Origin: a virus
Virus genome (UHGV): UHGV-0071094
Reading direction: 5' to 3' (one strand)
Length of the DNA stretch: 31,554 nucleotides
Position numbers and translations under genes: made by a program. Shown piece by piece: positions 6,490-24,396 of this stretch. Each line of letters begins with the position of its first letter. Position 1 is the first letter of the stretch. The notes beneath the pieces were generated by a model. The model was not told the origin of the DNA, did no database searches, and worked only from the letters and a program-made list of their open reading frames with translations.

Positions 6490-6955
6490 TTAGCATTTTT
6501 GAGACGCAACATAGTCACTCCACCATTGCATGAGAACCACCCGTTCTGTGGGATATTCTGCACGATTGTAGGCTGCAATTATTTCATCTTTCTTCGAGTG
6601 GGTAAGGGCGGCTTCGAAGACATCAGTCCTAAACTTTCCAGACTCATCAGCAGCATCGCATACCGTGAGCTACAAGCTTACCTCCGAACCCCATACGGAT
6701 TATGGCCGCATTAGCTGTTTGCTCATGCATATGGTTAAGAGGAGCCTTTATGCTTGGAAACACCCATTCACGATGCCCACTTATCACTTTCATTGACTCT
6801 AGGACTCGTAAAGCTTCTTTGCTTAGTGGAACTTTGTGAGGCTTCTTCATTTTCATAAACTCAGCCGGGATGTTCCACATACCAGTTTCTATATCAATAT
6901 CTGTCCATCTTGTGCGAACCGCTTCAGCGGGCGAACCCATGTTAGAAGTTGCCAC
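6490..6955 (-). pseudogene. Truncated, frameshifted tyrosine integrase (C-terminal catalytic half only)
   Basis: ORF 6647..6955 encodes an integrase catalytic-domain segment (WTDIDIETGMWNIPAEF...HREWVFPS...AHGMR). The C-terminal ...DESGKFRTDVFEAALTHSKKDEIIAAYNRAEYPTERVVLMQWWSDYVASQKC* continues in another frame (about 14-nt deletion relative to the copy at 2518..2738). The N-terminal ~220 codons are absent. Confidence 0.7.
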
Positions 6956-7377
6956 TCAATCAGTAGCCTTGTTTCTAACCGGATAGAAGCATTGTTTAGA
7001 GCAACTAGGAAGCGGGGGGATTACTGTTTCTGGTAAAGACTCTTTTGGTGGTGAACTGGACGCCTGGAATCAATATGAGAAAACTACTTAGTGCAACAGG
7101 AGCTGAATTAACTAATGGTGTAACATTACCTAGTGGTTGGCTTGTCAGTGGTATGAGCAAGGGAGCCAATAATCCTGAAAATTTAAGAGCGTTTGCTGTT
7201 TGTATGAGACAATGGCAGCATAAAAATTCTAGGATAAACTTTTGCCTTAATTAAAATGATAGGTGGTATATTTATAGGGGTTATCTTAGGAAGAATATTT
7301 TTAATGCTATTGATGAGAAGTATCGGACATGATTTAATGTTGTTTATGTTTTAGAATTCTCATATTCAGGCGGTTTC

Positions 7378-7743
7378 ATGATAAAACAGAAGTTAAAGAA
7401 TGACTGGGATATTCCTGCAATTCTTCGTCTTACTAAAGAACAAAAAAGGCTAAAATTGTCTGTTCAAGAAGTTGCAGACCTTCTGGACTTAAGCTCATAC
7501 TTTTTTGAGTTAGCTGTCGATGAGAAGGTGGATTTCAAATTTTATGACCTTCCTGAAAAGGTTAAAAAAAAGCTGCATTATGCAGGTTTTGATATTTTCT
7601 ATTTAATGACTGGTGAGTATTCAGGTAGTGAACCGGCATTGAAAATCGCCAGTTTTGAATATTCTATAAAGGATATGTCTCCTGAAGAAAAAAATGAAGT
7701 GAGAGTGTTGATAGAAAATATACCGATAACAAAACCACACTAA
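7378..7743 (+). CDS. Hypothetical 121-aa protein
   Basis: AT-rich ORF with no recognised domain; weak RBS; immediately upstream of a membrane protein gene. Confidence 0.4.
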   Translation: MIKQKLKNDWDIPAILRLTKEQKRLKLSVQEVADLLDLSSYFFELAVDEKVDFKFYDLPEKVKKKLHYAGFDIFYLMTGEYSGSEPALKIASFEYSIKDMSPEEKNEVRVLIENIPITKPH

Positions 7744-7812
7744 AATTACCTTTAATCCTATCATGTTATATTGGTAGGAAAAATTAGAACGTAATGATAT
7801 TGAGGTATAATC

Positions 7813-8436
7813 ATGGCCTTATCATCTGTAGCTATTGTGGCTGGTGTAGCTACTTTGGCAGCATCTCTTTTCAAAAATACAGAACTTCGGGTGATAGATA
7901 TCGTTGAGTTGTCAAAGCTCAGTGTTAACGATATTGAAAACAACCCTCAGTTAAAAATTGTCAAAAATGATATTAATGAACATATAACAGGCATTAAAGA
8001 CCCTGCATTTCATGAGGTTCTAATTGAAATTATGGCTAAGCATAATAAACCTGTTGGTTACTTCAAAAAAGTTGATGGTAGGTTGCAGTATGACCATTCC
8101 TATTATATTTCAATTAATAAGATGGGCTGGGGGCAATACATTAAAAAGTTAATTAATAATCCAAATGATTGGGTTGCAACTTTGATATATGTTATTTTTA
8201 TTATAACAATGTTCGGAATAGCAGTAGATCTTGATAAGGATCCACAAACATTTAATCAAGGTCTGTCTATATTTTTATCAGGTATGGGGGGATTAATGTT
8301 TAGCTTTTTATTAAAAGGCTTATCGGTTCAATGGAGAAATAGCTTTCATAATGTCAAGGATTTCGAATATAAAGAATTGTTTAAAGAGTACGCTAACAGT
8401 AAAATAGATGAAATCATATCATCAAACTCTAAATAA
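7813..8436 (+). CDS. Hypothetical membrane protein (207 aa)
   Basis: GAGG RBS 6-8 nt upstream; hydrophobic segments (ALSSVAIVAGVATLAASLF; WVATLIYVIFIITMFGIAV; LSIFLSGMGGLMFSFLL) suggest about 3 transmembrane helices. Confidence 0.5.
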   Translation: MALSSVAIVAGVATLAASLFKNTELRVIDIVELSKLSVNDIENNPQLKIVKNDINEHITGIKDPAFHEVLIEIMAKHNKPVGYFKKVDGRLQYDHSYYISINKMGWGQYIKKLINNPNDWVATLIYVIFIITMFGIAVDLDKDPQTFNQGLSIFLSGMGGLMFSFLLKGLSVQWRNSFHNVKDFEYKELFKEYANSKIDEIISSNSK

Positions 8437-8539
8437 TGATTCGGAATCATTTCTACCGTTGGCTGGGGTACATAAAAGCGTAATATTTTTATTCATTCTG
8501 ATAAAGCCAAGTCACATGGCTTGGCTTCAGATATATTGA

Positions 8540-8872
8540 TTAAGTATTATCTTTAATCGTTGTTGTTGTTCCGTTGGTTTTCACGGAAGCGATACCTTTT
8601 TCACGGGATTGTTTGGTCGAGTACATCTGGCTTGTACCGATCACATGATGATTAGCCGCCCGTAGGTTAAAATAGGACTTGCCGTTAGATGAGTCTTTCA
8701 GATCGTAGCGTTCATCAAGTGGGCTGTTTGCCTGAACTGATATAATGCCATTTTCTGCAGAACTCTTGGTTGTGTAAAGCTCGCTGGTGAGGATAATTTC
8801 TCCATTACCGGCTTTCAGAACAAATTTATACTGTTCATTACTGCTCTTATCCAATTCGAACCAACCAGCCAT
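8540..8872 (-). CDS. DUF1508 (YegP-like) tandem-repeat protein
   Basis: 110-aa ORF with two internal repeats (...YKFVLKAGNGEIILTSELYTTKSSAENGIISVQ / ...YFNLRAANHHVIGTSQMYSTKQSREKGIASVK) characteristic of the DUF1508/UPF0339 family. Confidence 0.65.
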   Translation of the reverse strand: MAGWFELDKSSNEQYKFVLKAGNGEIILTSELYTTKSSAENGIISVQANSPLDERYDLKDSSNGKSYFNLRAANHHVIGTSQMYSTKQSREKGIASVKTNGTTTTIKDNT

Positions 8873-9650
8873 ATTAACTCCTTGATAAAGTTGTGATTTT
8901 TACGGCCCAGTGATGAAGAACGAAGCGGGCAAGTTCAGTATGCCTGAAACAAAAATTGTTTCCAATATGTTATGTTTGTATCGGTAGCTGGGAACAAGAC
9001 TACACACTACGAAATGAGGCTTAGCTGTCGCCCACCAGTGTTGGCAGGTATGCCTTAGTGGGAGTCTTAGAGCGGAGGGTATCTTGAATCAATGTCTATT
9101 GCCATATTTACACGACACACGATATATTTTCTTTAGAGTCATATCTTAGGAAACAATAACGGCGACTTGAGCAAAAGTATCTAATATCAATAGATTTTCG
9201 TTAATTTAAAAAAATAGGTGCTCTCTCATAAAATCTGTAGGGTACTTGGTCGTGAATAAATTGCTGAGTTCATGTTGCGATGTCATTATTTGTCATCTTC
9301 CATGTCTCATAATTATCCTAACGTATAGGTTCAATGAAATTCCTTTATTCCTGTGTCTAATCTAATCAATCTAGCAATCTAACCAAACCTGTGTGTGGCG
9401 ATTTTACCTTGTTTAAATGTTCTAGGAATGCCTTTATCTTTTAGTATTAATTATATTAAAGGTTTACTTTCACGATGAGTATTTGCTGTTTCATCGGGAG
9501 GTTAAGATATTCATAATCTATCCTGACTGTAACGAAGATTAATCATTGATTTTATTTATATGTGAAAAAATCACTTTAAATATTGATTTTTTATGATTTA
9601 TGTAGTTTAATTTAAATGTATAGGTGATTTTTTCACATTGGAGAGGTGCT

Positions 9651-11009
9651 ATGTTAATCAGATTCTCAGTCGAAAACTACAAGTCATTCAGAGATAGAGT
9701 CGAGTTTTCAATGGTTTCGAGTAAAGTTCGAAGCCATCCATCACATGTCGTTAAGGCAACTTCTGCGAACGATATAAGTGTGTTAAAAGTTGGAGTTATC
9801 TATGGAGCTAATGCTTCTGGTAAATCCAACATCATCAAAGCAATGAAACATGCTCAAAATATGATTTTGAAAGGAAGTAAAGCTGGTACTAACCTTCCCT
9901 ATGCACCTTTCAGGCTTGATGATGATTTTGAAAAGAAACCCAGCAGATTTGAATTTGAAATTAAAATCAATGGCAAGAACTATGCATATGGATTCTCAGC
10001 TGATCAAAAATCCATTAAAGAAGAGTGGTTGTATGAAATAAACAAGAAGGATGACATTCTTATTTATGAAAGAAGTAATACAACTCACTTTAAATTTGAA
10101 AACATAAAATTTAAAAATGAAGAAGACGAACAATTCCTAAACTTTACAGCAAGAGGAACAAGCGAAAACTCTTTGTTTTTGTACGAATGTTTTGATAGGA
10201 ATGTTCTGAAGGATTTGAATTACATTGTACCAATTTCTGATGTTTTTAAATGGTTTAAAGCTAAGTTACAAATAGTTTTCCCGAATTCTAAATATAGAGA
10301 CCTAGATTTTGGATCTGCTTCTGATGAAAAAGAAGGAGAGCTTATAACTGATATTCTAAAAGATTTTGATACCGGTGTGTCAAAGTTAGTATTAAGAAAA
10401 GTTAGTTCATTTGATGATATAAAACTTCCTCCCAATTTCAAGGACCAGATCATAGAGGATCTTAAATCTAGTAAGGCTGTTGTAATTTCAGGGCCAAGAA
10501 ATAAACGATATAAAGTTGAACTGGGTGAAGATGGAGAAATAACGGTATTTCAATTGATGACGGCCCATAAAGATAAAAATGGTGATGATGTATATTTTGA
10601 ACTCAACCAGGAATCAGATGGTACACAAAGACTTTTTGATATTATACCTGGATTAGTCGAACTTATGTTGAAAGACAAAGTTTATATAATTGATGAAATT
10701 GATCGTAGTTTGCATCCAAAGATTACAAAAACATTTATGAAATTATTCTCTATGAAAACTGTCGGTAAAGACAGTCAACTGATAGTCACCACTCATGAAA
10801 CCGGTCTTTTAGATTTTGAACTTATACGAAGAGATGAGGTTTGGTTTACTGAAAAAAATAAAAGTGGAATTTCGAGAATTTATTCACTCGAAGAATTCCA
10901 GCCTAGGTTTGATAAAGATATACGTAAAGGTTACTTAGTGGGGCGTTTTGGTGGAATTCCTAAAATAAAGAATATATTATCAAACGTTGAAGATTTTCAG
11001 AAGGACTAA
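9651..11009 (+). CDS. ABC/SMC-like AAA ATPase (OLD/AbiLi-like ATPase component)
   Basis: Walker A GANASGKSN; Walker B-like VYIIDEIDRSLH; GGAGAGG RBS before the ATG at 9651 (ORF track start 9624 is less likely); stop 2 bp before the next gene. Confidence 0.7.
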   Translation: MLIRFSVENYKSFRDRVEFSMVSSKVRSHPSHVVKATSANDISVLKVGVIYGANASGKSNIIKAMKHAQNMILKGSKAGTNLPYAPFRLDDDFEKKPSRFEFEIKINGKNYAYGFSADQKSIKEEWLYEINKKDDILIYERSNTTHFKFENIKFKNEEDEQFLNFTARGTSENSLFLYECFDRNVLKDLNYIVPISDVFKWFKAKLQIVFPNSKYRDLDFGSASDEKEGELITDILKDFDTGVSKLVLRKVSSFDDIKLPPNFKDQIIEDLKSSKAVVISGPRNKRYKVELGEDGEITVFQLMTAHKDKNGDDVYFELNQESDGTQRLFDIIPGLVELMLKDKVYIIDEIDRSLHPKITKTFMKLFSMKTVGKDSQLIVTTHETGLLDFELIRRDEVWFTEKNKSGISRIYSLEEFQPRFDKDIRKGYLVGRFGGIPKIKNILSNVEDFQKD

Positions 11010-11011
11010 AA

Positions 11012-11668
11012 ATGCCTCGTGAAAGAAGAGAGTTTGACAGAAGAAGTGGGGTAAAAGACCCGTCTTTAATTGTAATTGCTTGTGAAGGAGAGAAAACAGA
11101 GCAGGACTATTTCAATAGTATATCGGAACTATGTGATGAGTTAGGATCACGTTTACAACTTAAAGTTCTCCCGCCGCGAGAAGAGGGGCATAGTGCGCCT
11201 AGACATGTTTTAGACCAAATGGATAAATATAAAAAAGAATTTGGAATTAAAGTGAATGATGAATTATGTCTGGTAATCGATAGGGATAAACAATCATGGA
11301 CAGAGGCTACTATAAGTGAAGTTGCTCAGTTTTGTCATGCCAAACAATATATTCTGGCTTTAAGTAATCCATGTTTTGAATTATGGCTTCTTATACACCA
11401 TTATGATGTAATGCTCCTCGGTGAGGATGAAAAAAGAAGTATTTTAAGAAATAAAAATGGGTATATGAAAAGCAAACTACGGGATGTTATTGGACAATAT
11501 AACCCAAGTTCTATTAATATTCATGATTTCTGGGGGGTAACTGAAATCGCGATTGACAGAGCTAAACGTTTAGATGTTAATCCAGCTGAGAGATGGCCTA
11601 ATGAAATAGGAAGTCGTGTGTATATAATCATGGAGAAAATACGTCAGTCAATTAATAATCAATTATAA
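11012..11668 (+). CDS. RloB-like / Toprim-domain protein (putative nuclease partner of the ATPase)
   Basis: 218-aa ORF; N-terminal IVIACEGEKTE and downstream LVIDRDKQ give a Toprim-like E...DxD signature; translationally coupled to the ATPase gene. Confidence 0.6.
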   Translation: MPRERREFDRRSGVKDPSLIVIACEGEKTEQDYFNSISELCDELGSRLQLKVLPPREEGHSAPRHVLDQMDKYKKEFGIKVNDELCLVIDRDKQSWTEATISEVAQFCHAKQYILALSNPCFELWLLIHHYDVMLLGEDEKRSILRNKNGYMKSKLRDVIGQYNPSSINIHDFWGVTEIAIDRAKRLDVNPAERWPNEIGSRVYIIMEKIRQSINNQL

Positions 11669-12082: not shown

Positions 12083-13345
12083 CTAATTCATTTTCTTTAT
12101 TCTCTGGGCGAATTCAAACGGTGTAATGTGTTCTTTTCTGTTGGCATTAAGGTAGTCAGCCCACCATTGTAACATGAGTTTTCTCTCTTCGAGATGTTCC
12201 GCTTTGTGGATATATGCTGCCCGAACCGAGTTACGCTCTTGGTGGCTCATTTGACGTTCTACGGCGTCTCTTGACCATAACCCAGATTCGATTAATGCAC
12301 TACAAGCCATAGTTCGAAAACCGTGACCACAAACTTCAGCTTTCGTGTCGTAACCCATGGTGCGAAGAGCCTTGTTAACAGTGTTTTCGCTGATTGGTTT
12401 GTCATCGCGACTAAAACCAATGAACATAAGATCCTTTTCTCCACTTATAGCTTGGAGCCTTTTAAATAATACTACAGCCTGCTTACTTAGCGGCACAAGA
12501 TGAGGGGTTTTCATTTTTGAGCCCCTATTTGAATACTTAACCCCCTCCAATTCTCGTCTTTCTGCAGGGATTGTCCATAAGGAGTTTTTGAAATTCACCT
12601 CAGACCAACGAGCGAATCTAAGTTCACTTGAACGGATGAAAGTCAGTAGAGTTAATTGAACTGCTATTTGAGTGATACCTTTCCCTTTATAGGCATCAAT
12701 CCGTTTGAGAAGCTCAGGAAGTCGTTCGAGGGGAAGGGCAGGGCGGTGATTACTCTTGGCAGTGGTTACAGCGCCTGCGAGGTCGTAAGCTGGGTTTTGG
12801 TCAATCAAAGCATTGTGAACAGCATACCGCATGATGGCAGTGATTCTTTGTTGTAAACGGGCAGCAAGTTCAAGATGTCCAGTTTCCTCTGCTTTTTTCA
12901 GAGGAACAAGTAAATCACGAGTTTTAAGCTCACTAATGTTCCGCTTACCGATAACAGGAAATACATGAGTGATCAGGCTGTTTAATACGGTAGTTCTGTG
13001 ACTGTCTGACCAGGTTCTGTTGCTTGAGTGCCAGTCTCTGGCAACAGTTTCAAAAATGAGTAAGCCTTTCTCTTCAATCTTTTCTGTTTTTCGCTTTTCG
13101 CCAGGGTCAACATTGTTGGCAATGAGTTGCCTTGCTTCTTCTCTTCTACGACGAGCTTCTGCTAAAGACACTTCGGGATAAACACCAAGCGCCAACATTT
13201 TTTGCTTACCAGAAAAGCGATATTGAAGCCGCCAGTATTTTGAACCCGTAGGGTGAACCAGGAGATGCATACCATCCCCATCTGTTAACTTGACGGGCTT
13301 TTCAGTAGGTTTCGCATTTCTGACTTTTACCTCAGTTAGTGCCAT
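12083..13345 (-). CDS. P4/CP4-57-type tyrosine integrase (Arm-DNA-binding DUF4102 plus catalytic domain)
   Basis: 420-aa ORF; N-terminus MALTEVKVRNAKP...KLTDGDGMHLLV...GSKYWRLQYRF typical of the P4-like integrase arm-binding domain; C-terminal HGFRTMA...AAY...LMLQWWADYL catalytic motifs. Sits at the AT-rich/GC-normal boundary. Confidence 0.9.
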   Translation of the reverse strand: MALTEVKVRNAKPTEKPVKLTDGDGMHLLVHPTGSKYWRLQYRFSGKQKMLALGVYPEVSLAEARRRREEARQLIANNVDPGEKRKTEKIEEKGLLIFETVARDWHSSNRTWSDSHRTTVLNSLITHVFPVIGKRNISELKTRDLLVPLKKAEETGHLELAARLQQRITAIMRYAVHNALIDQNPAYDLAGAVTTAKSNHRPALPLERLPELLKRIDAYKGKGITQIAVQLTLLTFIRSSELRFARWSEVNFKNSLWTIPAERRELEGVKYSNRGSKMKTPHLVPLSKQAVVLFKRLQAISGEKDLMFIGFSRDDKPISENTVNKALRTMGYDTKAEVCGHGFRTMACSALIESGLWSRDAVERQMSHQERNSVRAAYIHKAEHLEERKLMLQWWADYLNANRKEHITPFEFAQRIKKMN

Positions 13346-13520
13346 TGTGACCTCCTGATGATGGTATCTGCATTATCGAACTTACAATACCAACAGTTAT
13401 ACCAACAAAACAAGCTGGATGTCCGTATATCCCAACAGTCCTTGGTAGACCATGGTTAAAGTGTACTTCATTGAAATGATTGGGAAAAATAGACTTTGAT
13501 ATACTTCGGTAGACAGGGTT

Positions 13521-13536
13521 CTGGCGTCCCCTGCAG
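13521..13536 (-). other. Candidate prophage attR core (tRNA 3'-end-like sequence)
   Basis: Minus strand reads CTGCAGGGGACgCCA, resembling the acceptor-stem 3' end plus CCA of tRNA-Arg (argW as I recall it: ...CCTGCAGGGGACACCA); located between the excisionase and the next integrase, where an attR is expected. Confidence 0.4.
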
Positions 13537-13609
13537 ACATCTACTTGAGGCAGCAGGGGATTGATTAGAATGGTATTTTTTAGATGTGAGAAATATTTTA
13601 CCCGCTATT

Positions 13610-13810
13610 TTACCCATTGGCGCGGCTTAAGAGCTTATTTTTGAATTCACAATGGTCACGATATAACCATCTTGCTCGCCCGTGGATAACTTTGGCTTTA
13701 GGCAGGTCTCCGGACTTAATCCGGTCATAGATGAAGGTTTTACCGAAGCCAGTATCGGCCATGATGAATTTCAAATCAACCAGGGAATCAGGCTGTAGTT
13801 CGTGTTGCAT
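13610..13810 (-). CDS. torI: AlpA/TorI-family excisionase (winged-helix recombination directionality factor)
   Basis: 66-aa ORF (MQHELQPDSLVDLKFIMADTGFGKTFIYDRIKSGDLPKAKVIHGRARWLYRDH...) with AlpA-like HTH; position at the prophage end opposite the intS-like integrase matches the KplE1 layout. Gene symbol by analogy, not verified. Confidence 0.75.
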   Translation of the reverse strand: MQHELQPDSLVDLKFIMADTGFGKTFIYDRIKSGDLPKAKVIHGRARWLYRDHCEFKNKLLSRANG

Positions 13811-13828
13811 GAGTGCTATCTCCGAATA

Positions 13829-13844
13829 GGGAATCGAACCTGCA
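13829..13844 (-). other. tRNA T-arm-like 16-mer (TTGCAGGTTCGATTCC) immediately upstream of the excisionase gene
   Basis: Minus-strand sequence matches the T-stem/T-loop (GGTTCGATTCC) region of a tRNA and diverges where the acceptor 3' strand would begin. Confidence 0.45.
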
Positions 13845-13852
13845 AATCAGGC

Positions 13853-13876
13853 AAGAAAAAACCGCCATCAGGCGGC
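13853..13876 (-). terminator. Rho-independent terminator-like hairpin with U-run (minus strand)
   Basis: GCCGCC-TGAT-GGCGG stem-loop followed by TTTTTTC on the minus strand, overlapping the stop of the small ORF upstream. Confidence 0.4.
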
Positions 13877-14035
13877 TTGGTGTTCTTTCAGTTCTTCAAT
13901 TCGAATATTGGTTATGTCTGCATGTGCTATCTGCGCCCATATCATCCAGTGGTCATAGCAGTCATTGATGTTCTCTGCTTCGATAACTCTGTTGAATGGT
14001 TCTCCATTCCATTCACCTGTGACTCGGAAGTACAT
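13868..14035 (-). CDS. Small hypothetical phage protein (55 aa)
   Basis: Minus-strand ORF MYFRVTGEWNGEPFNRVIEAENINDCYDHWMIWAQIAHADITNIRIEELKEHQAA preceded by a GGAGA RBS; below the ORF-track size cut-off; the overlapping plus-strand ORF 13802..14050 is judged spurious. Confidence 0.35.
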   Translation of the reverse strand: MYFRVTGEWNGEPFNRVIEAENINDCYDHWMIWAQIAHADITNIRIEELKEHQAA

Positions 14036-14222
14036 TTATCATCTCCATAAAACAAAACTCGCCGTAGCGAGTTCAGATAAAAGAAATCCCCGCGAATGCG
14101 AGGATTGTTAGTTGCGCTCTGCTGCTGCCTTAGCCATTACCATATCCACCAAACTTCACCAGACATGATTCTCGCAATCACTATCATCACCAAAGTGATA
14201 ATCACAACTTTAACTGGCGGCA

Positions 14223-14951
14223 TCATTCACCATCCTGCTGCGGTGCTGCTGGCAGTGGCATCCAGTGGGTAATACTACCTGGATATAAACTCTTTGCTGG
14301 CCCCCAGTAGCCATCTGTATTAACACGCATAACCTCACAGCCATCAAAACCATCAGTTACAAGAACGTATTCATAAGGTTCCGGCATCCTTTCGCTTACC
14401 GGAATCCAACTATCCGGAGTTCCCGGAGAGTTGCCATTTACATCGAAGTTTGGCTCTGCGTCCTGAACCAGGAGGATGTAACCATTCTTGGCTGTATCAA
14501 GTTCTAACGCCTCGGTGACGGTGCCGAAATAGCGATTGCCTAAATCAGCATCACAAGTGCTTACATCAATGGAAACTTCCATGCCCTCGATTAATTCTGG
14601 CAAGTTGTAAGTTTGGCTTACAGGTTCGGCTTCCAGTTCTGCTATGCGCTTTTTTGCTGCTTCCAGCTCGCCAAGCAGCGCCAAGACGGTAGCCGGATTG
14701 GCTGCGGCGATGAATTCAGCATTGGCCTGCTGTTCCATTTGGAAATCTTCATCGAAACCGCTTTCAGGATGCGCTCCTTCAATTCTGCAAATGGGAATAT
14801 ATCCAGCAGCCTCGCGATGAATTAGCGCATCATCACAATCAAATCGGCTCTCTCCATATTCGAGCGACCACTCACCACACGTTGCTTTTTCTGCCGCTTC
14901 ACGCAGTGCCTGGTAATTAATTTCGCTCACTGTTTGCCTCCTTTGCGCCAC
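14223..14951 (-). CDS. Ead/Ea22-like protein with C-terminal DUF551 domain
   Basis: 242-aa ORF; C-terminal ...[35 protein letters not shown]...THWMPLP resembles DUF551; typical lambdoid early-left accessory gene. Confidence 0.7.
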
Positions 14952-15550
14952 ATCGCATTCAGATATTTGTTGTCATTAACAGAACCGAAACTCTTTCTTT
15001 TAAGCAATTCCTCTCTCGATGGCATTGGCTTTACGCGTTGGCGAATAATCATTTCTGCCGGAAGAATGCCGGGATTGTATGCAAGTCCTCTCATGGTAAA
15101 TTCCTCAGTCATTACTGATAGCGCCATAGCGTGAGCGGTAATTACGCAGGCGCGGGTCAATTTCAGGGAAGTGGGTATATCTGCATCTTTCGCATCATCA
15201 ATGCCGAACAAACCATTGAGGCAATACTTGCGTGCATAAGAGCTTGTAGCTCCAGTAACTTGTGCAGAATCCATTCCTTTCTTGCTTTCTTCCTCTCGTG
15301 CAAGAGCGGTTGCCGTATGACTGTTTTCGCCATCGGTAATAGTTGCCGTGGCTTTCACATAATACCGATCACCAATCAACACAACTTCATCGCTGATTGA
15401 TAAAAACAGGCCATTCAGTAGCGGCTTAACGCCTTCAAGAATATCTTCGCAGCTTCTGTATTTATATTTACCGAATGAGTTGTACTGATTTTTTGGCGCG
15501 TTCAGATTCTCCTGAATGGCAGCCAGTCTTGCGTAAAATTCTTTGCTCAT
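14927..15550 (-). CDS. erf: ERF-family single-strand annealing protein (P22 Erf-like)
   Basis: Translation from the internal Met ([45 protein letters not shown]...) closely resembles phage P22 Erf as I recall it; the ORF-track start 15580 probably over-extends. Confidence 0.8.
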
Positions 15551-15651
15551 ATGATTGTTCTCAGAATGGACATGGCCCAAGGAAATAACGCTGATTTAAT
15601 ACTTCGACTCGGGACAAGTTAAGGCATACCCGCATTCCTTCGCGGTCACCA

Positions 15652-15810
15652 TTATGGCGATACCAGAGAGCTTTCTGCGTGTACATGCGTCTCTGTAACT
15701 TGCTCTCCTTCACTGTGGTTGCAAGTGACATGAATATCTCCTTCGTTACCGATTAATTCTTTCATCTGACGAATGAATTCTTCGTCTGACCAGTTATCTG
15801 TAAAACTCAT
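15652..15810 (-). CDS. Small phage protein (52 aa) in the Arf/early-left position
   Basis: Minus-strand ORF MSFTDNWSDEEFIRQMKELIGNEGDIHVTCNHSEGEQVTETHVHAESSLVSP; its ATG overlaps the stop of the upstream small gene (ATGA). Confidence 0.4.
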   Translation of the reverse strand: MSFTDNWSDEEFIRQMKELIGNEGDIHVTCNHSEGEQVTETHVHAESSLVSP

Positions 15811-15959
15811 TTCCTGCGATACCATGGAAGGTTGATAGCTAATTTCATCTCTTTATTTGCTTCAAGCCACATTTTGGAATCACCAATAAATCTGGCTATT
15901 ACTGCTTTGTTTTGTGCTGCTCGAAGCATCTGGTGATTGATGGCTATTTCATTGCGCAT
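15807..15959 (-). CDS. Kil-like small protein (50 aa)
   Basis: Minus-strand ORF MRNEIAINHQMLRAAQNKAVIARFIGDSKMWLEANKEMKLAINLPWYRRK; the ...RFIGDSKMW... segment resembles lambdoid Kil as recalled; assignment tentative. Confidence 0.35.
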   Translation of the reverse strand: MRNEIAINHQMLRAAQNKAVIARFIGDSKMWLEANKEMKLAINLPWYRRK

Positions 15960-16078
15960 AACGCCTCCAGTTGTTTCTTTGCTGCTCTGATTAATTGTTT
16001 AACTCGGCGTGATAATTCAGATTCGTGCGGGTAGAAAGCGGACATGACGCCGCTACCCGCGAGCTGAAAGTGCATCAT
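15944..16078 (-). CDS. cIII-like small protein (44 aa)
   Basis: Internal start of ORF 15944..16183 gives MMHFQLAGSGVMSAFYPHESELSRRVKQLIRAAKKQLEALCAMK, resembling lambda CIII (..AG....ESxL.R....L); AAGGAG RBS upstream. Confidence 0.4.
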   Translation of the reverse strand: MMHFQLAGSGVMSAFYPHESELSRRVKQLIRAAKKQLEALCAMK

Positions 16079-16619
16079 GGGTAACTCCTTATATTTGATT
16101 GCATAACGAAAACGCCTCGAGTGAAGCGTTATTGGTATGCGGTAAAGCCGATGGAAGAATGGTTTCTTCTCGCAGGTAAGCATGATGCTTGCTGTTCTGG
16201 AATACGGAATCGAAGACGATGAAATGGCTGAATTGACTAAGCGGCTTGCCGATTACCTGACAAAAGAAAAAGCCCCGAAGAACGGCGAATTCTTCGAGGC
16301 CTGATGTAGAAAGACTGGATCAATCCACAGGAGTAATTATGACAAAACGTCGTAAGAAATACCAGGAAAAAGAAGAGATTCGACACCCTGATTCACCTGA
16401 GGGATTAGTGGTAGCCGCAGCAAATAACAGGGCGTTCGCAGAGCGCCTTGTTGGTGTTTACAGACTAGCCAAAGCAGGAGTGAAACATGGGCGTCGTTAA
16501 GTTAGCTGATTACAGGCATATCCAAACCGTATGCCTGTTGGTAGTGGTAACCAGTTGGCGAAGTGGAACGGTTGGAATTACTTCCACCGAAAGGAACCTT
16601 GCGATAACGGGAGCGAATA

Positions 16620-18038
16620 ATGCCGATTCAGCAACTTCCGCTTATGAAAGGTGTCGGCAAAGACTTTCGAAACGCCGACTATATCGACTATCTGCCAGTG
16701 AATATGTTGGCTACACCCAAAGAAATACTCAACAGCAGCGGATATCTTCGTTCATTCCCGGGCATTGCCAAACGCTCTGATGTGAACGGTGCATCTCGCG
16801 GCGTCGAGTACAACATGGCGCAGAATGCTGTTTATCGTGTGTGTGGTGGCAAGCTGTACAAAGGAGAAAGTGAAGTCGGTGACGTTGCCGGAAGTGGTCG
16901 TGTATCAATGGCGCATGGTCGGACATCACAGGCAGTAGGCGTTAATGGTCAACTGGTCGAGTATCGCTATGATGGCACGGTTAAAACCGTCTCAAACTGG
17001 CCTACAGACAGCGGATTCACGCAGTATGAGTTAGGTTCAGTCCGCGACATTACGCGCTTACGTGGGCGTTATGCGTGGTCAAAAGACGGCACTGATTCAT
17101 GGTTTATCACTGACCTTGAAGACGAATCGCATCCTGACCGCTACAGCGCACAATATCGTGCTGAGTCTCAGCCTGACGGCATCATCGGCATCGGAACATG
17201 GCGAGACTTCATCGTCTGCTTTGGTTCATCGACGATTGAATATTTCTCCCTGACTGGCGCAACAACTGTTGGTGCTGCTTTGTATGTCGCACAGCCATCA
17301 CTGATGGTGCAGAAAGGCATTGCCGGAACTTACTGCAAAACGCCATTCGCTGATTCGTATGCGTTTATCAGCAATCCGGCAACGGGTGCGCCGTCTGTAT
17401 ACATCATCGGATCCGGTCAGGTGTCACCAATCGCCAGCGCGAGCATTGAGAAAATTCTCCGCTCCTACACTGCTGATGAACTGGCTGATGGTGTGATGGA
17501 GTCTCTGCGATTTGATGCGCATGAGCTGCTGATTATCCATCTTCCGCGCCATGTTCTGGTGTACGACGCATCTTCAAGCGCCAATGGTCCGCAATGGTGT
17601 GTACTGAAAACAGGCCTGTATGACGATGTGTATCGCGCTATCGACTTCATTTACGAAGGCAATCAGATAACGTGCGGCGATAAGCTGGAATCCGTGACCG
17701 GGAAATTGCAATTCGATATCAGCAGCCAGTACGACAAGCAACAGGAACATCTGCTGTTTACTCCACTCTTCAAAGCAGATAACGCCAGAGTTTTCGACCT
17801 TGAGGTTGAATCGTCAACTGGCGTTGCGCAGTACGCTGACCGCCTGTTCCTCTCTGCAACCACTGACGGCATCAATTACGGGCGTGAGCAGATGATTGAG
17901 CAGAATGAACCGTTCGTTTACGACAAACGCGTTTTGTGGAAGAAAGTAGGGCGCATCAGGAAAAACATTGGCTTCAAATTGCGCGTTATCACTAAGTCAC
18001 CTGTCACTCTGTCTGGCTGCCAGATAAGGATTGAGTAA
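16620..18038 (+). CDS. P22 gp10-like tail/head-completion protein
   Basis: 472-aa ORF; same length as P22 gp10 and N-terminus [46 protein letters not shown] closely resembles it. Confidence 0.85.
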
Positions 18039-18886
18039 TGGCTGATTCGAATCTTAATGTGCCGGTAATCATTCAGGCTACACGACTCGACACATCAGTC
18101 CTTCCGCGTAATATCTTCTCGCAGTCGTATCTGCTTTACGTTATCGCACAGGGAACTGATGTTGGTAACGTGGCTAACAAAGCCAACGAGGCCGGACAGG
18201 GCGCTTATGATGCACAGGTCAGGAACGATGAGCAGGATGTGATTCTCGCTGACCATGAGCAGCGAATTTCTGCTGCGGAAGCAACGCTTGTTAATCATGA
18301 GGAGCGAATCAGCCAGGCAGAATCAACTCTTCAGGAACATGAAACGCGAATCGCTCAGAATGAAAGCGATATTGCGTCGCTTGATACCAGAGTTCAGTCG
18401 CTGGAATCGCAGGTTTCAGACCATGAATCGCGCATTGATGCTCTGGAGTATGCCACTACTCGCAAGAAGTCAGAGGTTGTTTACTCTGGCGTATCAGTAA
18501 CCATTCCGACAGCGCCGACCAACCTTGTTAGCCTGCTGAAAACGCTCACGCCGTCATCAGGATCGTTGGCACCATTCTTCGACACCGTTAACAACAAGAT
18601 GGTTGTGTTCAACGAGAACAAAACCTTGTTCTTCAAGCTGTCGATCGTCGGGACGTGGCCCAGCGGAACCGCCAACAGGTCAATGCAGCTAACATTTTCC
18701 GGTTCTGTTCCTGACACACTGGTAAGCAGTCGCAACTCGGCGACAACAACCGACAACATCCTGTTAGCTACGTTCTTCAGCGTGGATAAAGACGGCTTTC
18801 TTGCCACAAATGGCAGTACGTTAACCATTCAGTCAAATGGTGCGGCGTTTACTGCCACAACCATCAAGATAATCGCGGAGCAGTGA
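18038..18886 (+). CDS. Tail needle protein (gp26-like) with C-terminal knob, Sf6-type
   Basis: ATG overlaps the gp10 stop (TAATG); N-terminus [36 protein letters not shown] conserved with P22 gp26; heptad-like coiled-coil middle; 282 aa with a ~130-aa C-terminal extension, as in Sf6-type needles. Confidence 0.8.
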
Positions 18887-19341
18887 TGATTCAGTTCAAA
18901 CAAACGCGAAACATCGACCTGATCGAAGCAGTCGGAAATCACCCTGACATTATCGCCGGTAGCAACAACGGTGATGGATACGACTACAAGCCTGAATGCC
19001 GTTACTTTGAGGTTAACGTGCACGGTCAGTTTGGCGGCATTGTTTACTATCAGGAAATTCAGCCGCTTACATTCGATTGCCACGCCATGTACCTGCCAGA
19101 GGTTCGCGGCTTCAGCAAGGAAATCGGGATGGCGTTCTGGCAATACATTCTGACTAACACCACCGTTCAGTGCGTCACATCGTTCGCCGCACGCAAATTC
19201 CGCCACGGGCAGATTTACTGCGCAATGATTGGCCTTAAGCGTGTCGGAACCATCAAGAAATACTTCAAAGGCGTGGATGACGTGACTTTTTACAGCGCCA
19301 CACGCGAAGAACTAATCGACTTCCTGAATCACGGGAGATAG
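18883..19341 (+). CDS. P22 gp14-like virion assembly protein
   Basis: 152-aa ORF in the conserved position between the needle and gp7 genes; overlapping start/stop. Confidence 0.65.
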
Positions 19342-19343
19342 CC

Positions 19344-20036
19344 ATGTTATATGCATTTAAGCTGGGCAGAAAACTGCGCGGCGAGGAACCTTGGTGCCCT
19401 GAAAAAGGCGGGAAAGGTGGTAGCTCTGATAAAAGCGCAAAGTATGCAGCAGAAGCCCAGAAGTATGCCGCAGACCTGCAAAATCAGCAGTGGCAGACGA
19501 TCATGAAAAACCTTGCTCCGTTCACGCCTCTTGCGGAGCAGTATGTTAACCAGCTTCAGAACCTTTCCAGTTTAGAAGGTCAGGGGCAGGCACTTAATCA
19601 GTATTACAACTCTCAGCAGTATAAAGACCTTGCAGGTCAGGCTCGTTACCAGAGTCTTGCTGCTGCGGAGGCTACGGGAGGACTTGGTTCGACAGCCACA
19701 AGCAATCAACTGGCTACGATCGCGCCGACTCTCGGTCAGTCGTGGTTATCAAACCAGATGAGCAATTACAACAATCTGGCAAACGTTGGGCTTGGTGCTC
19801 TGCAAGGTCAGGCAAACGCCGGGCAGACGTACGCCAACAACATGAGCAGCATTGCACAGCAAAGCGCAGCTCTTGCCGCTGCTAATGCCAACAAACCATC
19901 AAGTCTTCAGACAGCAATTAGTGGCGGAACGTCTGGTGCGATTGCCGGTGCAGGTCTTGCCAGCCTTTTGGGAACATCAACACCTTGGGGCGCTGGCATT
20001 GGTGCTGGTATCGGATTGCTTGGCTCGTTGTTTTAA
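19344..20036 (+). CDS. Ejection protein, P22 gp7-like
   Basis: 230-aa ORF, Gln/Ala/Gly-rich with a glycine-rich hydrophobic C-terminus; gene order and size match P22 gene 7. Confidence 0.75.
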   Translation: MLYAFKLGRKLRGEEPWCPEKGGKGGSSDKSAKYAAEAQKYAADLQNQQWQTIMKNLAPFTPLAEQYVNQLQNLSSLEGQGQALNQYYNSQQYKDLAGQARYQSLAAAEATGGLGSTATSNQLATIAPTLGQSWLSNQMSNYNNLANVGLGALQGQANAGQTYANNMSSIAQQSAALAAANANKPSSLQTAISGGTSGAIAGAGLASLLGTSTPWGAGIGAGIGLLGSLF

Positions 20037-20045
20037 GGGGTAATC

Positions 20046-21452
20046 ATGGCTACTTGGCAAGGATCAAATGGCGGATTGTTGGCTGGTATCGGCGGCGTCA
20101 ACTCAAACGCTCCGAGCGTAAATGACATCGGCAACACGCTTCAGCTTATCAGGCAGAACAATGATATTGAGCGTTCAGGCGCTAACAATGTTGGGCTGAC
20201 AGCTTTGCAAGGTCTTTCTGGTATTGCGGGTGTTTTTCAGCAGGAAAAGCAGGCTCAGCGGCAGAAAGAATTTCAGCAGGCATACGCTAATGCTTATGCG
20301 TCTGGTGATCGCGGTGCTTTGCGTCAGTTGGCTACTCAATATCCAGACCAGATTGAATCTGTTCGTAAAGGCATGGGATTCATTGATGAAGACCAGCGCA
20401 ATTCTATCGGCACCTTAGCGGCTGGCGCCCGCCTTGCATCATCGTCTCCAGAAGCAATGCAATCATGGCTGCAAAACAACGCCAAGGAACTGACTCGCGT
20501 CGGTGTTGACCCTAATAACGTTGCTCAGATGTATCAGCAGAACCCTTCAGGATTTGGTGAGTTTGTTGATCACCTTGGAATGGCTGCTCTTGGTCCGATT
20601 GATTACTTCAATGTTCAGGACAAGATGGCTGGTCGTGAGATTGATCGCGGAAAACTTGCAGAGACAATCCGCAGCAATCAGGCTGGAGAAGCACTTCAGG
20701 CGAGAGGGCAAAACCTTTCCTATCAGTCAGCAATGACTGGGCACAATATCGCAGCACAACGCTTGGCTCTGGATCAGCAAGAGTTCGGGTTTAAGATGCA
20801 GCAAGCGCAGGAAAAGGCTCAGCAGTTGATTAGCGAAGCACCTAAGCTGTCAGTAAACATGGAAAAAGGCATCGAGACGGCTGTAAACAATGCTACAGCA
20901 TCATCAAACTCAGCCAATTCTATGAGTGCGCTTGCTCAACAGTTCAGAGCAGAAAAACCAACGACAGGTTTGTTCGGTAACGCACAGAACATGTTCGCAA
21001 AACTTACCGGAAGCGATACAACATTGCGTGATTTGCGCATCCGCCAAAATGCCCTTGTTAACAGTCAGGTTCTTAAATTCCTACCTCCAGGCCCCGCAAC
21101 GGATAAAGACGTTGAGATCGTTCGGCAGGGGGCACCAACTGACATGGATAACCCTGAGACGGTCGCAAGATGGCTTGATGCAATGGCAAACCTTGAGCGA
21201 CGAAACGCGCAGTTTAATGAGTTTAAAGCCGAGTGGATGAGCGCGAATGGCAATCCAGGACAATCGCGTAATGGCGGTCAGATATTGGGGTTGGATGTTA
21301 AAAAAGGTGAATCATTGGGGAGTGCCGTTAAGCGGTATATGTCAATGAATACTGACGCAGCGCCAGCACAAGATTCGACACCTTCAGGAGAACCACGGAA
21401 TCAGGTTGGATCATATACCTCAAAATCAGGCATTCAATTTACGGTGGAATGA
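20046..21452 (+). CDS. Ejection protein, P22 gp20-like
   Basis: 468-aa ORF in conserved synteny (7-20-16); compositional similarity to P22 gp20. Confidence 0.75.
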
Positions 21453-23290
21453 TGAAAGTAACTGCAAACGGTAAGACATTTACCTTTCCTGATGGTACGA
21501 GCACCGAAGATATTGGCAACGCCATTGATGAGTATTATGCTGGTCAGGCTGTTCAGCAACAAACAGTTAATCAGGCCAATAATGCACCAACACGGGAAGA
21601 ACCATCATTGATCCAACAAGCTGGCGATTGGCTCACTGGTGGTCAAAGTGCAGGGCAAATTGCAGAACAGGCTGGTCGTGGTCTGGTAAACATACCATTT
21701 GACGTATTGCAGGGCGGCGCAAGTCTGATTAATGCAATCAGTCAGGGGCTTGGTGGACCCAAGGTTTTGGATGATGTTTATCGTCCAGTAGACAGACCGA
21801 CAGACCCCTACGCGCAAGCCGGTGAAACAATTGGTGGGTATTTAGTTCCAGGAGTTGGAACGGCAGGAAGCATGGCTATTGGATCACTGGCAGAGGCCGC
21901 AAATCAGAAAGGCGATTTCGCACAAAATGCAGCTAAAAATGCCGGAGTTAACCTTGCCACTCAGGGTGTTCTTTCCGCAGCAGCAAAGGGAATAGGGCGT
22001 GGAATAACGGCTATAAAAGGTGATATTGCGCCAGAAGTGGCGAAGAAAATTGCCACATCAGAATCGATGGGCGTGACACCAATGACATCTGATGTTATCC
22101 CGCCGAAAAATGCTTTCACTCGCGGCCTAACTCAGGATGCCGAGGGGGCTTTGCTCGGGACAGGCTCAAAGCGAGCGGAGCAATATGCAACGCGTAGTAA
22201 GCTGGTAAGTAATTATTTTGACCGTTTTGGTGAGTACAACCCTGATGATGTGGTGAAATCTCTTACCACCACGTTAAGGGGGCGGAAGGATGCCGCTGGC
22301 GCTGTTATCAATGACGTCACCAATAAAATGGGTAATGCCGCAGTTGATACCACAAATACCATGAATGCTCTGAATACAGCGATCGCAAGACAGGAACGGC
22401 TTGGGACGTCTGCCAATCAAAGCCTGCTTACATCCTTGCGTAACCTACGTGAAGAATTAGCAAACCCTGCAACTGATTTGGATGTTACGTTTGATCTCTT
22501 GCGTCAGCACAGAACAGCATTTAGATCTAATGTTCAGGGAGATGCTATGGTCTTCCCCAACCAGGCAAAAGCAGCTACCAATATGGTAGAGAATGCAATG
22601 TCAAAAGACCTTCGTAACGCAGTTGCTAAAAACCTCGGTGCATCAGACGCAGCAAAATACCTTAAAGCAAATTCCGATTATGCAAACGTTTATAATAAGG
22701 TGCTTAATAAAAACATTGCTAACAAGCTCAACAAGGCAAGCAGTGAAGCCAGTCCTGAACTTATAAATACCGTTGTATTAAGCAGAAAACCATCTGACGT
22801 GAAACGAATATGGAGCGCCCTGGATGATAAAGGGAAAGATGCTATGCGTGCAGCTTACGTCAGCAAAATAGCGGAAAAGGCCGGTGACTCTCCAGCCAAG
22901 TTCATCACTGAAGTTAATAAGCTGAAATCTCAGTCAGGCGGTGAAATTTACAACACTATTTTTTCTGGAAAGCACATGAAAGAGCTTGATGCTCTTCATG
23001 AAGTTCTACAGCAAACAGCAAGGTCAGACACCGCAAATGTAGTAACTCAGACGGGGCAATCACAAGCCAACAGGATAAGGACGATTGGCGCAACTGCGAC
23101 TCTTGGTGTATCAATGGGGCTTGAGGCTGGCTTTGGTGCAATGATGCGTTTGTATGAGTCCAAAGCAGCAAGGAATGCTCTCTTACGTCTGGCAAACACT
23201 AAAGCTGGAACGCCAGCCTATGAAAGAGCGTTGAGTAACGCTGCAAATGCCATCAGGCCGCTGCTTGCTACTGAGGCAACACAGCAGTAA
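21449..23290 (+). CDS. Ejection protein, P22 gp16-like
   Basis: 613-aa ORF; N-terminus [16 protein letters not shown] and size fit P22 gp16; overlaps the gp20 stop. Confidence 0.75.
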
Positions 23291-23314
23291 CGTATGGGGA
23301 ATTGGATTCAATCG

Positions 23315-23704
23315 TTAACATTTTCTTTTTACTTTTCCAACAAAAGCTTTGGTTGAATCCATATTCCCATAACCAGAAATGGTTTTCGACATTAAAACTG
23401 TTCCATTAGGATGTATTACCCATGAGTCGATAACTCGTTGAGTTTCGCCATTCGCGCCGATTCCAATGATGGAGTTTTTAGACAATGCTTTGTAAGCCAT
23501 GCCGCCCGCATCCGTCCCAGAATATGTGATACTGGCATCTTCACCGTTTGTCTTAATGATGAATGTTCCACTAAAACCATCTTCTTCCGGTTGAAAATTA
23601 TTTCGTTCTGAATAGCTTATTCCGTGCATATCTCCAACGACCCAGCACTCTGCTGAGACAGAAAACGAGAAGACAAGGAAAGCCATTGCTATAATCAATT
23701 TCAT
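23315..23704 (-). CDS. Hypothetical secreted protein (129 aa), moron in the sieA position
   Basis: N-terminal signal peptide MKLIIAMAFLVFSFSVSA; no recognised domain; same strand as and downstream of mnt. Confidence 0.55.
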   Translation of the reverse strand: MKLIIAMAFLVFSFSVSAECWVVGDMHGISYSERNNFQPEEDGFSGTFIIKTNGEDASITYSGTDAGGMAYKALSKNSIIGIGANGETQRVIDSWVIHPNGTVLMSKTISGYGNMDSTKAFVGKVKRKC

Positions 23705-23719
23705 TTTAAGCCCTTATTG

Positions 23720-24055
23720 TTATTGATTCTTTTTGCACGGAAATGTTTTTCCTACTGCTAGGGCGGTTAGTATAACTGCACTCTCATTTCTTGATTCTGG
23801 GTTTTTGTTTAGATATTTCTCAACGATATCGGTGTATTGATACATGTCAACGCCATCAGGAGGACATAGAGAACCAATTAGTATCAATGAGTCAGTTACT
23901 CCGCGCAAATATCCAGTAATGTAAAGCGATGAAAAATCATCACCCTTTTTACCTTGTTGAATGTTGTAAAGAAGGTCATTACCCGTTTGAAGCTCGCGCA
24001 GCTCAGCACTGGAAGAAGAGACAACTGCTAACAAGAACAGTGATAGAAATCTCAT
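23720..24055 (-). CDS. Hypothetical secreted protein (111 aa), moron co-transcribed with mnt
   Basis: Signal peptide MRFLSLFLLAVVSSSSA; two Cys (possible disulfide); start overlaps the mnt stop. Confidence 0.55.
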   Translation of the reverse strand: MRFLSLFLLAVVSSSSAELRELQTGNDLLYNIQQGKKGDDFSSLYITGYLRGVTDSLILIGSLCPPDGVDMYQYTDIVEKYLNKNPESRNESAVILTALAVGKTFPCKKNQ

Positions 24056-24380: not shown

Positions 24381-24396
24381 ATATTGTGAGGTGAAC

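Follow-up and report, generated by a model that had tools for sequence, protein, structure and literature searches.

The leftward (PL) operon of coliphages HK106, HK022, HK97, HK633 and Sf6 carries cIII, kil, two small ORFs and erf, in that order. In E. coli K-12, toxic division inhibitors are known from cryptic prophages, where KilR of Rac and DicB of Qin are still under the control of a prophage repressor and promoter. Kil of lambda and HK629, when expressed, blocks assembly of the FtsZ ring through ZipA and causes filamentation (PMC3961180; PMC11762379). A further prophage remnant of K-12, KplE1 (CPS-53), lies at argW, where intS adjoins the tRNA gene with gtrABC as its neighbour and the opposite end, by attR, has an excisionase gene of the torI type; it has no CI regulatory module (PMC2951348). 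Here we analysed 31,554 nucleotides of virus genome UHGV-0071094 (the window), in which an early-left gene cluster of the HK106 kind lies within a remnant of the KplE1 kind. We consider this region to be, probably, a promoterless stub of a PL operon, left as silent and recently deleted debris in a KplE1/Sf6/HK620-type, P22-like prophage at argW. The locus is an ordinary decayed P22/Sf6-like E. coli prophage, which three deletions (A, B and C) would have cut down to ~18 kb.

The left boundary of this P22/Sf6/KplE1-type prophage is the attR core. Next to it, as the terminal gene of what was once the early-left operon, lies a torI-like gene whose product is annotated as TorI in MSHS 472 and HK633. 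At the opposite end lies intS (30347-31540), just beyond which MSHS 472 has tRNA-Arg; the attR core, an excisionase of the torI type and intS at the argW end are thus arranged as in KplE1, Sf6 and HK620. All three look intact, as they are in KplE1; attL falls outside the window, past its end. A 420-aa integrase encoded at 12083-13345 was considered as the prophage's own and rejected: window positions 13252-13536 are 100% identical to strain E14, where this integrase directly adjoins tRNA-Arg and the prophage is absent, and the gene was therefore assigned to the island on the left. The remnant shares with KplE1 the adjacent gtrABC genes and the lack of a CI regulatory module. It appears to differ in being larger and in retaining head-completion and ejection genes, an arc/mnt/ant/sar region, a tailspike and the early-left stub. 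The coordinates of the features are collected in Table 1.

Table 1. Features of the early-left stub, the deletion junctions and the left end of the prophage (positions in the window)
Feature	Position	Strand	Basis or remark
attR core	13521..13536	.	15-nt copy of tRNA-Arg (argW) 3' end, TGGCGTCCCCTGCAG
torI-like excisionase (recombination directionality factor)	13610..13810	-	phrog_66 excisionase match
Ead/Ea22 + DUF551 ORF (242 aa)	14223..14951	-	Pfam Ead_Ea22 1.4e-23, DUF551 2.2e-12
DUF2737 gene (P22 orf56 / HK97 gp38 type)	14927..15094	-	Pfam DUF2737 3.4e-28
Linker, 28 codons	15095..15178	-	abc2 3' remnant (~79 nt, out of frame) and abc2-DUF2737 spacer
erf 5' fragment (residues 1-124 of the 201-aa protein)	15179..15550	-	Pfam ERF
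56-aa ORF (Sf6 gene 29 / HK106 gp38 type)	15561..15731	-	phrog_1723 9e-36
52-aa ORF (Sf6 gene 30 / HK106 gp39 type)	15652..15810	-	phrog_2123 9e-42
Full-length kil (50 aa) of the lambda-Kil family	15807..15959	-	Pfam Lambda_Kil and phrog_2055
cIII (44 aa), HK022/HK106 type, full length	15944..16078	-	Pfam cIII
Weak terminator-like 8-bp hairpin, then TTTTCGTT	16105..16130	-	Terminator scan; just upstream of cIII
Deletion junction A	16140..16141	.	HK106 homology ends 16140; cII homology starts 16141 or 16145
cII 3' fragment (~last 52 codons)	16141..16304	+	Pfam Phage_CII positions 53-91/91, E 3.6e-11
oop-like antisense RNA cassette	16260..16344	-	Aligns to P22 annotated oop promoter/terminator and lambda oop
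53-aa ORF between cII and replication gene (ST104 orf27 / Sf6 gene 42 type)	16339..16500	+	phrog_1331 1.4e-37
Deletion junction B, near 16516	16487..16620	+	O-region homology ends 16517-16523; gp4 3' end from ~16519
Gene 10 (head closure protein)	16620..18038	+	Pfam Phage_stabilise; first intact late gene after junctions

The minus-strand ORFs of the cluster are real and lie where the initial annotation, made from the letters alone, had placed them; its naming of cIII-like, Kil-like and erf genes agrees with matches to the Pfam families cIII, Lambda_Kil and ERF, and its lambdoid PL-operon layout holds, the order cIII, kil, 52-aa ORF, 56-aa ORF and erf (from 15550) being that of HK106 and HK633. 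The products of cIII, kil, the small ORFs and erf are 96-100% identical to those of coliphages HK106, HK633 and HK022, and the DNA at 15178-16140 is 98% identical to HK106. Overlapping reading frames, as described initially, are seen between cIII and kil (16 nt) and between kil and the 52-aa ORF (4 nt), but the 52-aa ORF and erf are not direct neighbours: between the two lies the conserved 56-aa ORF, missed at first, which overlaps the 52-aa ORF by 80 nt, and whose product is 100% identical to HK106 gp38 and occurs as an exact sequence on at least 1000 contigs. The 52-aa product is 98% identical to HK106 gp39. Its proposed kinship with P22 Arf was dropped, as BLASTP gave a non-significant 47% identity over 17 aa (E 0.2) and only genetic position is common to both. 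The same point, that position and not sequence is shared with P22 Arf, has been made for the 'arf' of HK620 (PMC5928155).

Both cIII and kil are full length. The cIII product scores 104.7 bits against Pfam cIII (PF08134 / PF02061; E 2e-30, cut-off 25) and is 100% identical to HK106 CIII, the exact sequence carrying the source name RPC3_BPHK0; an AAGGAG ribosome-binding site precedes the gene. Inhibition of FtsH with stabilisation of CII is a property of the family and may be predicted for this CIII, although its beneficiary CII is in any case truncated here. Kil matches Pfam Lambda_Kil (PF06301) with 67.6 bits (E 6e-19, cut-off 27.6) over profile positions 1-31/31 and phrog_2055 over 1-50/50, is 96% identical to Kil of HK106 and HK633, and is encoded, as in those phages, immediately 3' of cIII with the 16-nt overlap. 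The suggested relationship to Kil proteins is upheld for lambda Kil, which aligns with 60% identity over 25 aa; P22 Kil returned no alignment and was set aside as a homologue, the kil gene here being of the lambda/HK97 type. Two differences from HK106 Kil, A37E and S40L, were considered as decay mutations and dismissed, the exact variant being present on 78 contigs, the longest of 4.9 Mb. We predict from family membership that this HK97-type Kil is a division inhibitor. Like lambda Kil it is a small Lambda_Kil-family peptide encoded beside cIII, and like KilR and DicB it lies in a defective prophage, but, unlike those two, it has been left with neither repressor nor promoter. As with both small ORFs, the intactness of cIII and kil is owed only to deletion breakpoints that fell elsewhere.

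Retention of an intact Erf recombinase, as claimed in the initial annotation, proved wrong: an 854-bp deletion (deletion C, measured relative to HK633) truncates Erf within its conserved domain, and erf carries precisely the kind of inactivating change that the annotation itself had counted against its reading. Erf residues 1-124 are 100% identical to Erf of HK106 and HK633 and 93% to that of P22, and the fragment scores above threshold against Pfam ERF (PF04404; 138.8 bits, E 1.9e-40). The match ends at profile position 125/153, as compared with 146 in HK106 Erf and 148 in P22 Erf. Where functional Erf proteins of 201-205 aa have a complete ERF domain and a C-terminal region, residues 125-201 are here replaced by unrelated sequence. 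What reads as the 3' part of the 'erf' ORF (14927-15094) is a gene in its own right, for a DUF2737 product 94% identical to that of HK633, fused in frame; the 207-codon ORF consists of Erf(1-124), 28 out-of-frame residues and DUF2737. Window positions 14946-15183 correspond to HK633 (L001) 5634-5871 and 15178-15961 to L001 6726-7509, which places the breakpoint at ~15178-15183, with 3-6 bp of microhomology at the joint. Lost in between, relative to HK633, are Erf residues 125-201, the SSB-like gene and ~72 codons of abc2. Deletion C, near 15180, would thereby have cost erf its 3' 40% and abc2 three quarters of its length and left the recombination module broken, in contrast to the HK106-type operon, where erf continues past codon 124 and is accompanied by the SSB-like gene and abc2.

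We expect the Erf(1-124)-linker-DUF2737 product to be a non-functional deletion artefact. Poteete, Sauer and Hendrix are said to have found in 1983 that the N-terminal domain of Erf alone is inactive in vivo; our literature search gave no paper that speaks directly of its C-terminal domain. Ring formation and DNA binding reside towards the N-terminus of Erf, and this, together with a frame that stays open for 207 codons and runs into an intact DUF2737, could be taken to mean that the fusion is a new recombinase variant with function, or else a ring-forming protein that acts as a dominant negative. We regard such a role as extremely improbable: the linker is abc2 translated out of frame, the conserved domain is clipped by ~20 profile positions, the partner genes of Erf (SSB-like and abc2) went in the same deletion event, and the fusion ORF has no evident promoter. 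An open in-frame fusion would arise by chance with a roughly estimated probability of ~0.09 and is unremarkable. Further to that, among ~15 billion proteins the exact fusion forms a singleton cluster, tied to one remnant; it was found on six contigs, the three examined carrying an identical remnant. The open frame was misread as an intact erf, an error made also by the automatic annotation of GenBank DAW89231.1 ('ERF superfamily protein').

That PL, the N-like antiterminator and the repressor are gone, as claimed, was borne out. At junction A the DNA upstream of cIII, which stops a few nucleotides downstream of the position of the annotated rho-independent terminator of HK106, runs into cII in antisense orientation; what is left of cII is its 3' half, with 56% identity to P22 C1 residues 41-92. 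Deletion A would account for the absence of everything from the cIII-upstream terminator through N, nutL, PL/OL, the repressor and cro into the 5' part of cII; unlike the HK106-type operon, the window has no PL, nutL, N or cIII-upstream terminator. The 53-aa ORF region beyond cII has blastn matches to ST104, Sf6 and others, and is followed by junction B, where the first ~10 codons of an O/gene-18-like replication gene meet the last ~34 codons of gene 4 (head-tail adaptor), one reading frame past the joint resembling the C-terminus of P22 gp4. Deletion B would have removed the replication, nin, Q, lysis, terminase, portal, scaffold and coat genes, up to gene 4. The late genes beyond have kept their full length, with 92-96% identity to Sf6, N7 and JEP4 (95.6% to Sf6 over 16615-20100), for which the best reading is that decay was recent and deletional. 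The same remnant was found in human-gut metagenome contigs, its lineage occurring in samples ERR525885 and ERZ27239535; in megablast searches, the erf junction and junctions A and B were each present in 0/5,426 complete E. coli genomes, and junction A had no exact match in genome_contigs, a collection with one genome per GTDB species. A 100%-coverage match to the erf junction in H101 was discarded as a different joint, its two pieces lying over 412 bp.

Between cIII and junction B lies a cassette with the sequence hallmarks of an oop antisense RNA, namely a putative promoter that points leftward from the interval separating cII and the replication gene, a predicted RNA overlapping cII at its 3' end, and an intrinsic terminator of the strong kind. 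Its promoter pO has an extended -10, TGTCATAAT, at 16344-16336; a LexA-box-like CTGT-N8-CCAG follows at 16330-16315; and the terminator scan placed tO, with a 14-bp GC-rich stem, at 16302-16270, followed by a T-run at 16269-16260. The cassette folds with -27.7 kcal/mol (z -4.0). Extended -10, start region, LexA-box-like motif and terminator all align with oop of lambda and P22, and the 3' end of cII is overlapped likewise. The -35 (TGGTAT) is poorer than that of P22 (TGGTCA), and pO is therefore treated as a candidate promoter only. Rfam, whose library has no oop family, gave nothing credible for oop in the whole window at the gathering threshold or in 15900-16700 at E<=1. Its only match was sar RNA at 24559-24625. 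Unlike oop of lambda and P22, the cassette has a dead 3' fragment of cII as its target and, owing to deletion A, faces cIII and kil from ~180 bp.

The initial annotation had asked what now drives or silences these genes. Sigma-70 consensus scanning found 0 minus-strand sites between 15805 and 17000, and scans of 13300-17000 and 16300-24700 gave promoter counts at or below shuffled expectation, with nothing on the minus strand upstream of cIII; the scan is crude, misses non-canonical promoters and did not flag pO itself. The sole recognisable leftward promoter upstream of cIII would be pO. Its transcript would end at the strong tO, ~180 bp before cIII, the second, weak hairpin coming after (-16.2 kcal/mol, z -6.4; identical in HK106 and so native to this phage type). 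The likely answer is that cIII and kil have no recognisable driver and are separated from pO by a strong terminator. With PL gone, N/nutL antitermination gone and tO standing between pO and cIII, we judge that cIII, kil and the two small ORFs are without meaningful transcription, which would explain how a Kil-family division inhibitor is tolerated in a chromosome without a repressor.

Transcription from elsewhere was also weighed. Promoters can arise at deletion junctions, and the stub might be served by a fortuitous or distant one, at junction A, in the antisense cII or in the immI Pmnt region ~8 kb upstream, where a strong minus-strand promoter-like site (24362-24334, 10/12 matches) is read as Pmnt from its position beside arc/mnt-like genes and sar RNA. 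This appears quite improbable, as the minus strand of 16079-16330 has no consensus-like site (manual reading gave poor hexamers only), and a transcript from far upstream must pass ~7 kb of untranslated antisense RNA, where Rho-dependent termination is expected, and then tO.

To our knowledge no intrinsic terminator is 100% efficient, and some read-through from pO into cIII and kil is therefore possible. If cIII and kil were expressed in this way, weakly or upon SOS, with Kil transiently blocking division, the situation would be comparable to that of KilR in Rac or DicB in Qin. Cryptic prophages are reported to aid E. coli under adverse conditions (PMC3105296). To this, their division inhibitors contribute. 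The promoter shares the strand of cIII and is only ~250 bp upstream of it, its extended -10 and CTGT-N8-CCAG are conserved with lambda and P22, a LexA binding sequence has been reported within lambda oop-pO (PMC5869508), the strong terminator upstream of cIII in HK106 was lost through deletion A, and kil and cIII are intact with a good ribosome-binding site. We nevertheless hold expression by read-through to be unlikely. The 14-bp GC-rich stem of tO with its U-run is backed by the second hairpin, termination is unsuppressed with no nut site and no N, the rarity of the remnant among complete genomes speaks against selection, and the positions of the breakpoints alone account for the intactness of cIII and kil. 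A stronger version, in which deletion A accidentally put kil and cIII under a LexA-regulated oop promoter and DNA damage leads, by read-through of tO, to a burst of Kil, is very unlikely; if true, the remnant would be a prophage-derived, SulA-like SOS division checkpoint without a phage repressor.

Returning to the silent stub, we conclude that the locus is a clean case of prophage decay through a few large deletions and not through point mutation, and that beyond its annotation it is of little importance. It illustrates that a toxin gene of the Kil type can remain in place after loss of the repressor when its promoter is lost along with it. Only with significant read-through from pO would the locus be informative on the domestication of phage division inhibitors.

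The early-left (PL) operon remnant consists of ORFs packed tightly on the minus strand across 14927-16078, and judging by their sequences cIII, kil and the 52-aa and 56-aa ORFs are genuine genes, not chance ORFs. The DNA at 15178-16140 is 98.1% identical to that of HK106 (blastn), with protein identities of 100% for CIII and the 56-aa product, 98% for the 52-aa product and 96% for Kil, and the exact small-ORF peptides were found again on 78 to at least 1000 public contigs. Together with the profile matches, this shows that the small ORFs do not lack conservation, an outcome that the initial annotation had named as counting against its reading, and bears out its cIII-like, Kil-like and erf assignments. 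The 56-aa ORF, absent from that annotation, shares 80 nt with the 52-aa ORF in a different frame. Annotations of HK106, HK633 and Sf6 include both ORFs, and PHROGs labels them 'recombinase'; neither matched a Pfam family or showed significant similarity to P22 Arf, and likening the small genes to P22 Arf and P22 Kil was wrong. As everything here falls within well-known families and shares 96-100% identity with characterised phages, we regard the content as already known.

Features of the operon remnant and of the surrounding prophage
Feature	Coordinates	Strand	Details
cIII	15944-16078	minus	44 aa; AAGGAG upstream; Pfam cIII 104.7 bits
kil	15807-15959	minus	50 aa; 16-nt overlap with cIII; Lambda_Kil 67.6 bits, whole model
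52-aa ORF	15652-15810	minus	4-nt overlap with kil; phrog_2123 end to end
56-aa ORF	15561-15731	minus	phrog_1723 end to end
'erf' ORF	ATG 15550, stop 14927	minus	207 aa
Extended -10 TGTCATAAT	16344-16336	minus	oop cassette
LexA-box-like motif, CTGT-N8-CCAG	16330-16315	minus	oop cassette
tO	16302-16260	minus	14-bp terminator stem and U-run; oop cassette
Small ORF between cII and replication gene	16339-16500	plus	phrog_1331; same place in ST104, Sf6 and relatives
torI-type excisionase	13610-13810		near left prophage end
Tailspike, gtrC-like, gtrB, gtrA, intS	intS 30347-31540		right prophage end
Arc/Mnt-type and arc-like genes	within 23315-25505
Rap1a-family immunity-like protein	23720-24055	minus	at P22 sieA position
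Divergent promoter-like sites	24329-24362
sar antisense RNA	24559-24625		Rfam 65.6 bits
Bro-N/P22_AR_C (ant-like) gene	within 23315-25505		292 aa

Against HK633, the 'erf' ORF resolves into two separate blocks (blastn): window 15178-15961, equivalent to HK633 6726-7509 and holding kil, both small ORFs and the first 124 codons of erf, and window 14946-15183, equivalent to 5634-5871 and holding DUF2737 and the final 79 nt of the anti-RecBCD gene abc2. The 854 bp that lie between them in HK633 are absent here, the joint sitting in 3-6 bp of microhomology; they code for Erf residues 125-201, a 127-aa protein and the first ~72 codons of abc2. The 127-aa protein had no match in a Pfam search and ends in DDSIPF, which we take to resemble the acidic tail at the C-terminus of SSB proteins from bacteria. 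Erf had been described as intact, and inactivating changes in it as evidence to the contrary; such a change is present, since the 854 bp are missing and the Pfam ERF match stops at profile position 125 of 153, compared with 146 (HK106) and 148 (P22) in intact Erf. The whole P22-like recombination module, as described for such phages (PMC5928155), is broken here. What remains is a fusion of Erf(1-124), 28 out-of-frame residues mostly from the abc2 3' end, and in-frame DUF2737, deposited as 'ERF superfamily protein'. It is carried by six metagenome contigs, all three of those inspected holding the identical remnant, and forms a singleton cluster among ~15 billion proteins; that it is functional seems scarcely credible.

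Homology to HK106 stops at 16140. Upstream of that point HK106 has an annotated rho-independent terminator, a small ORF, N, PL and the repressor, whereas the window continues from 16141 with the 3' half of cII on the plus strand (Pfam Phage_CII positions 53-91 of 91; 56% identity to P22 C1 residues 41-92). The phrog_1331 ORF is followed by ~10 codons of an O/gene-18-like gene and, from a second junction near 16516, by the last ~34 codons of gene 4, gene 10 starting at 16620. There were thus two deletions: one at 16140|16141 (deletion A) took N, nutL, PL/OL, the repressor and cro along with the 5' portion of cII, and one near 16516 (deletion B) took the replication genes, nin, Q and the genes for lysis, terminase, portal, scaffold and coat. 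The reported loss of PL, N and repressor was correct; that first observation stands for gene identities and promoter loss, and falls for Erf integrity and the P22 Arf and Kil comparisons.

The left prophage end is marked by 15 nt that repeat the 3' end of argW (13521-13536), and in strain MSHS 472, whose remnant at this site is more eroded, tRNA-Arg comes directly after intS. Integrase and excisionase at opposite ends match the KplE1/Sf6/HK620 layout; KplE1 likewise lacks a CI module (PMC2951348). A 420-aa integrase (12083-13345) was rejected as the boundary and assigned to the left-hand island, because in strain E14, where no prophage lies there, it directly adjoins tRNA-Arg. The remaining late genes (10, 26, 14, 7, 20 and 16) retain their full length and share 92-96% identity with Sf6, N7 and JEP4, so the decay is deletional and probably recent. 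Neither deletion junction nor the erf joint occurred in any of 5,426 complete E. coli genomes (megablast), and the deletion A junction had no exact match in the GTDB species-representative set. Like excision-proficient KplE1, the prophage has an apparently intact attR core (from 13521), excisionase and intS, and the attL position falls just past the window end; the 18-kb remnant may still be excisable.

Other parts of the locus were also recorded. The region at the P22 immI position (23315-25505) is seemingly intact despite the loss of the primary repressor; the other gene at the sieA position, encoding a 129-aa minus-strand protein, had no family match. A 242-aa minus-strand ORF (14223-14951) joins Ead/Ea22 N-terminal and DUF551 C-terminal parts, unlike HK633, where ead and DUF551 are separate genes with others between; also missing is the HK620p08-like gene that lies between DUF2737 and ead. 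Normal mosaicism (phrog_60 covers both parts) or further deletions may account for this. The three inspected contigs differ from the window only at six positions within 62 bp (13915-13976), inside a 55-aa phrog_676 ORF, which alter three amino acids; the window has the HK106 base at three of these six positions, and it looks as if recombination or gene conversion with another prophage copy had introduced a short patch. To the left, plus-strand genes for an AAA_21 ATPase and a RloB-family protein (9624-11668; PADLOC AbiLi, 3e-91, and AbiLii, 3e-23) are likely an abortive-infection pair of the neighbouring argW island, beside its integrase. Going by the annotation of the 99.9% identical MSHS 472 locus, the left-hand island (1-8900) contains hxsA (His-Xaa-Ser system), two ParB-like genes and fragments of integrases, together with genes for a TIGR04141 protein and a large serine recombinase; argW appears to have accumulated several mobile elements, one stacked beside the other.

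As to what might transcribe the operon remnant, a consensus scan of the minus strand upstream of cIII (15805-17000) found no sigma-70-like site, and counts of promoter-like sites were equal to or below shuffled expectation; a fortuitous or distant promoter is quite improbable. The minus-strand oop-like cassette (16260-16344) is complete, though its target cII survives only as a 3' fragment; TTTTGTCATAATTACTCCTGTGGATTGATCCAGTCTTTCTACATCAGGCCTC is identical to P22 through the annotated oop promoter and RNA start and close to lambda's, and the computed folding energy of the cassette is -27.7 kcal/mol (z -4.0). Through deletion A its promoter, pO, is now aimed at cIII-kil from ~250 bp away, and a LexA binding sequence has been described inside lambda oop-pO (PMC5869508), so that low-level or SOS-inducible read-through could be envisaged. 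We consider it unlikely: tO lies in between, a native 8-bp hairpin with a weak T-tract (16130-16105) follows toward cIII, and no suppression of termination is expected because nutL and N are gone. The operon remnant is, on these sequence features, probably transcriptionally silent debris. Tested Lambda_Kil-family relatives stop FtsZ assembly via ZipA (PMC3961180; PMC11762379), and such silence would account for the persistence of a Kil-family division inhibitor gene, tolerated without a repressor.
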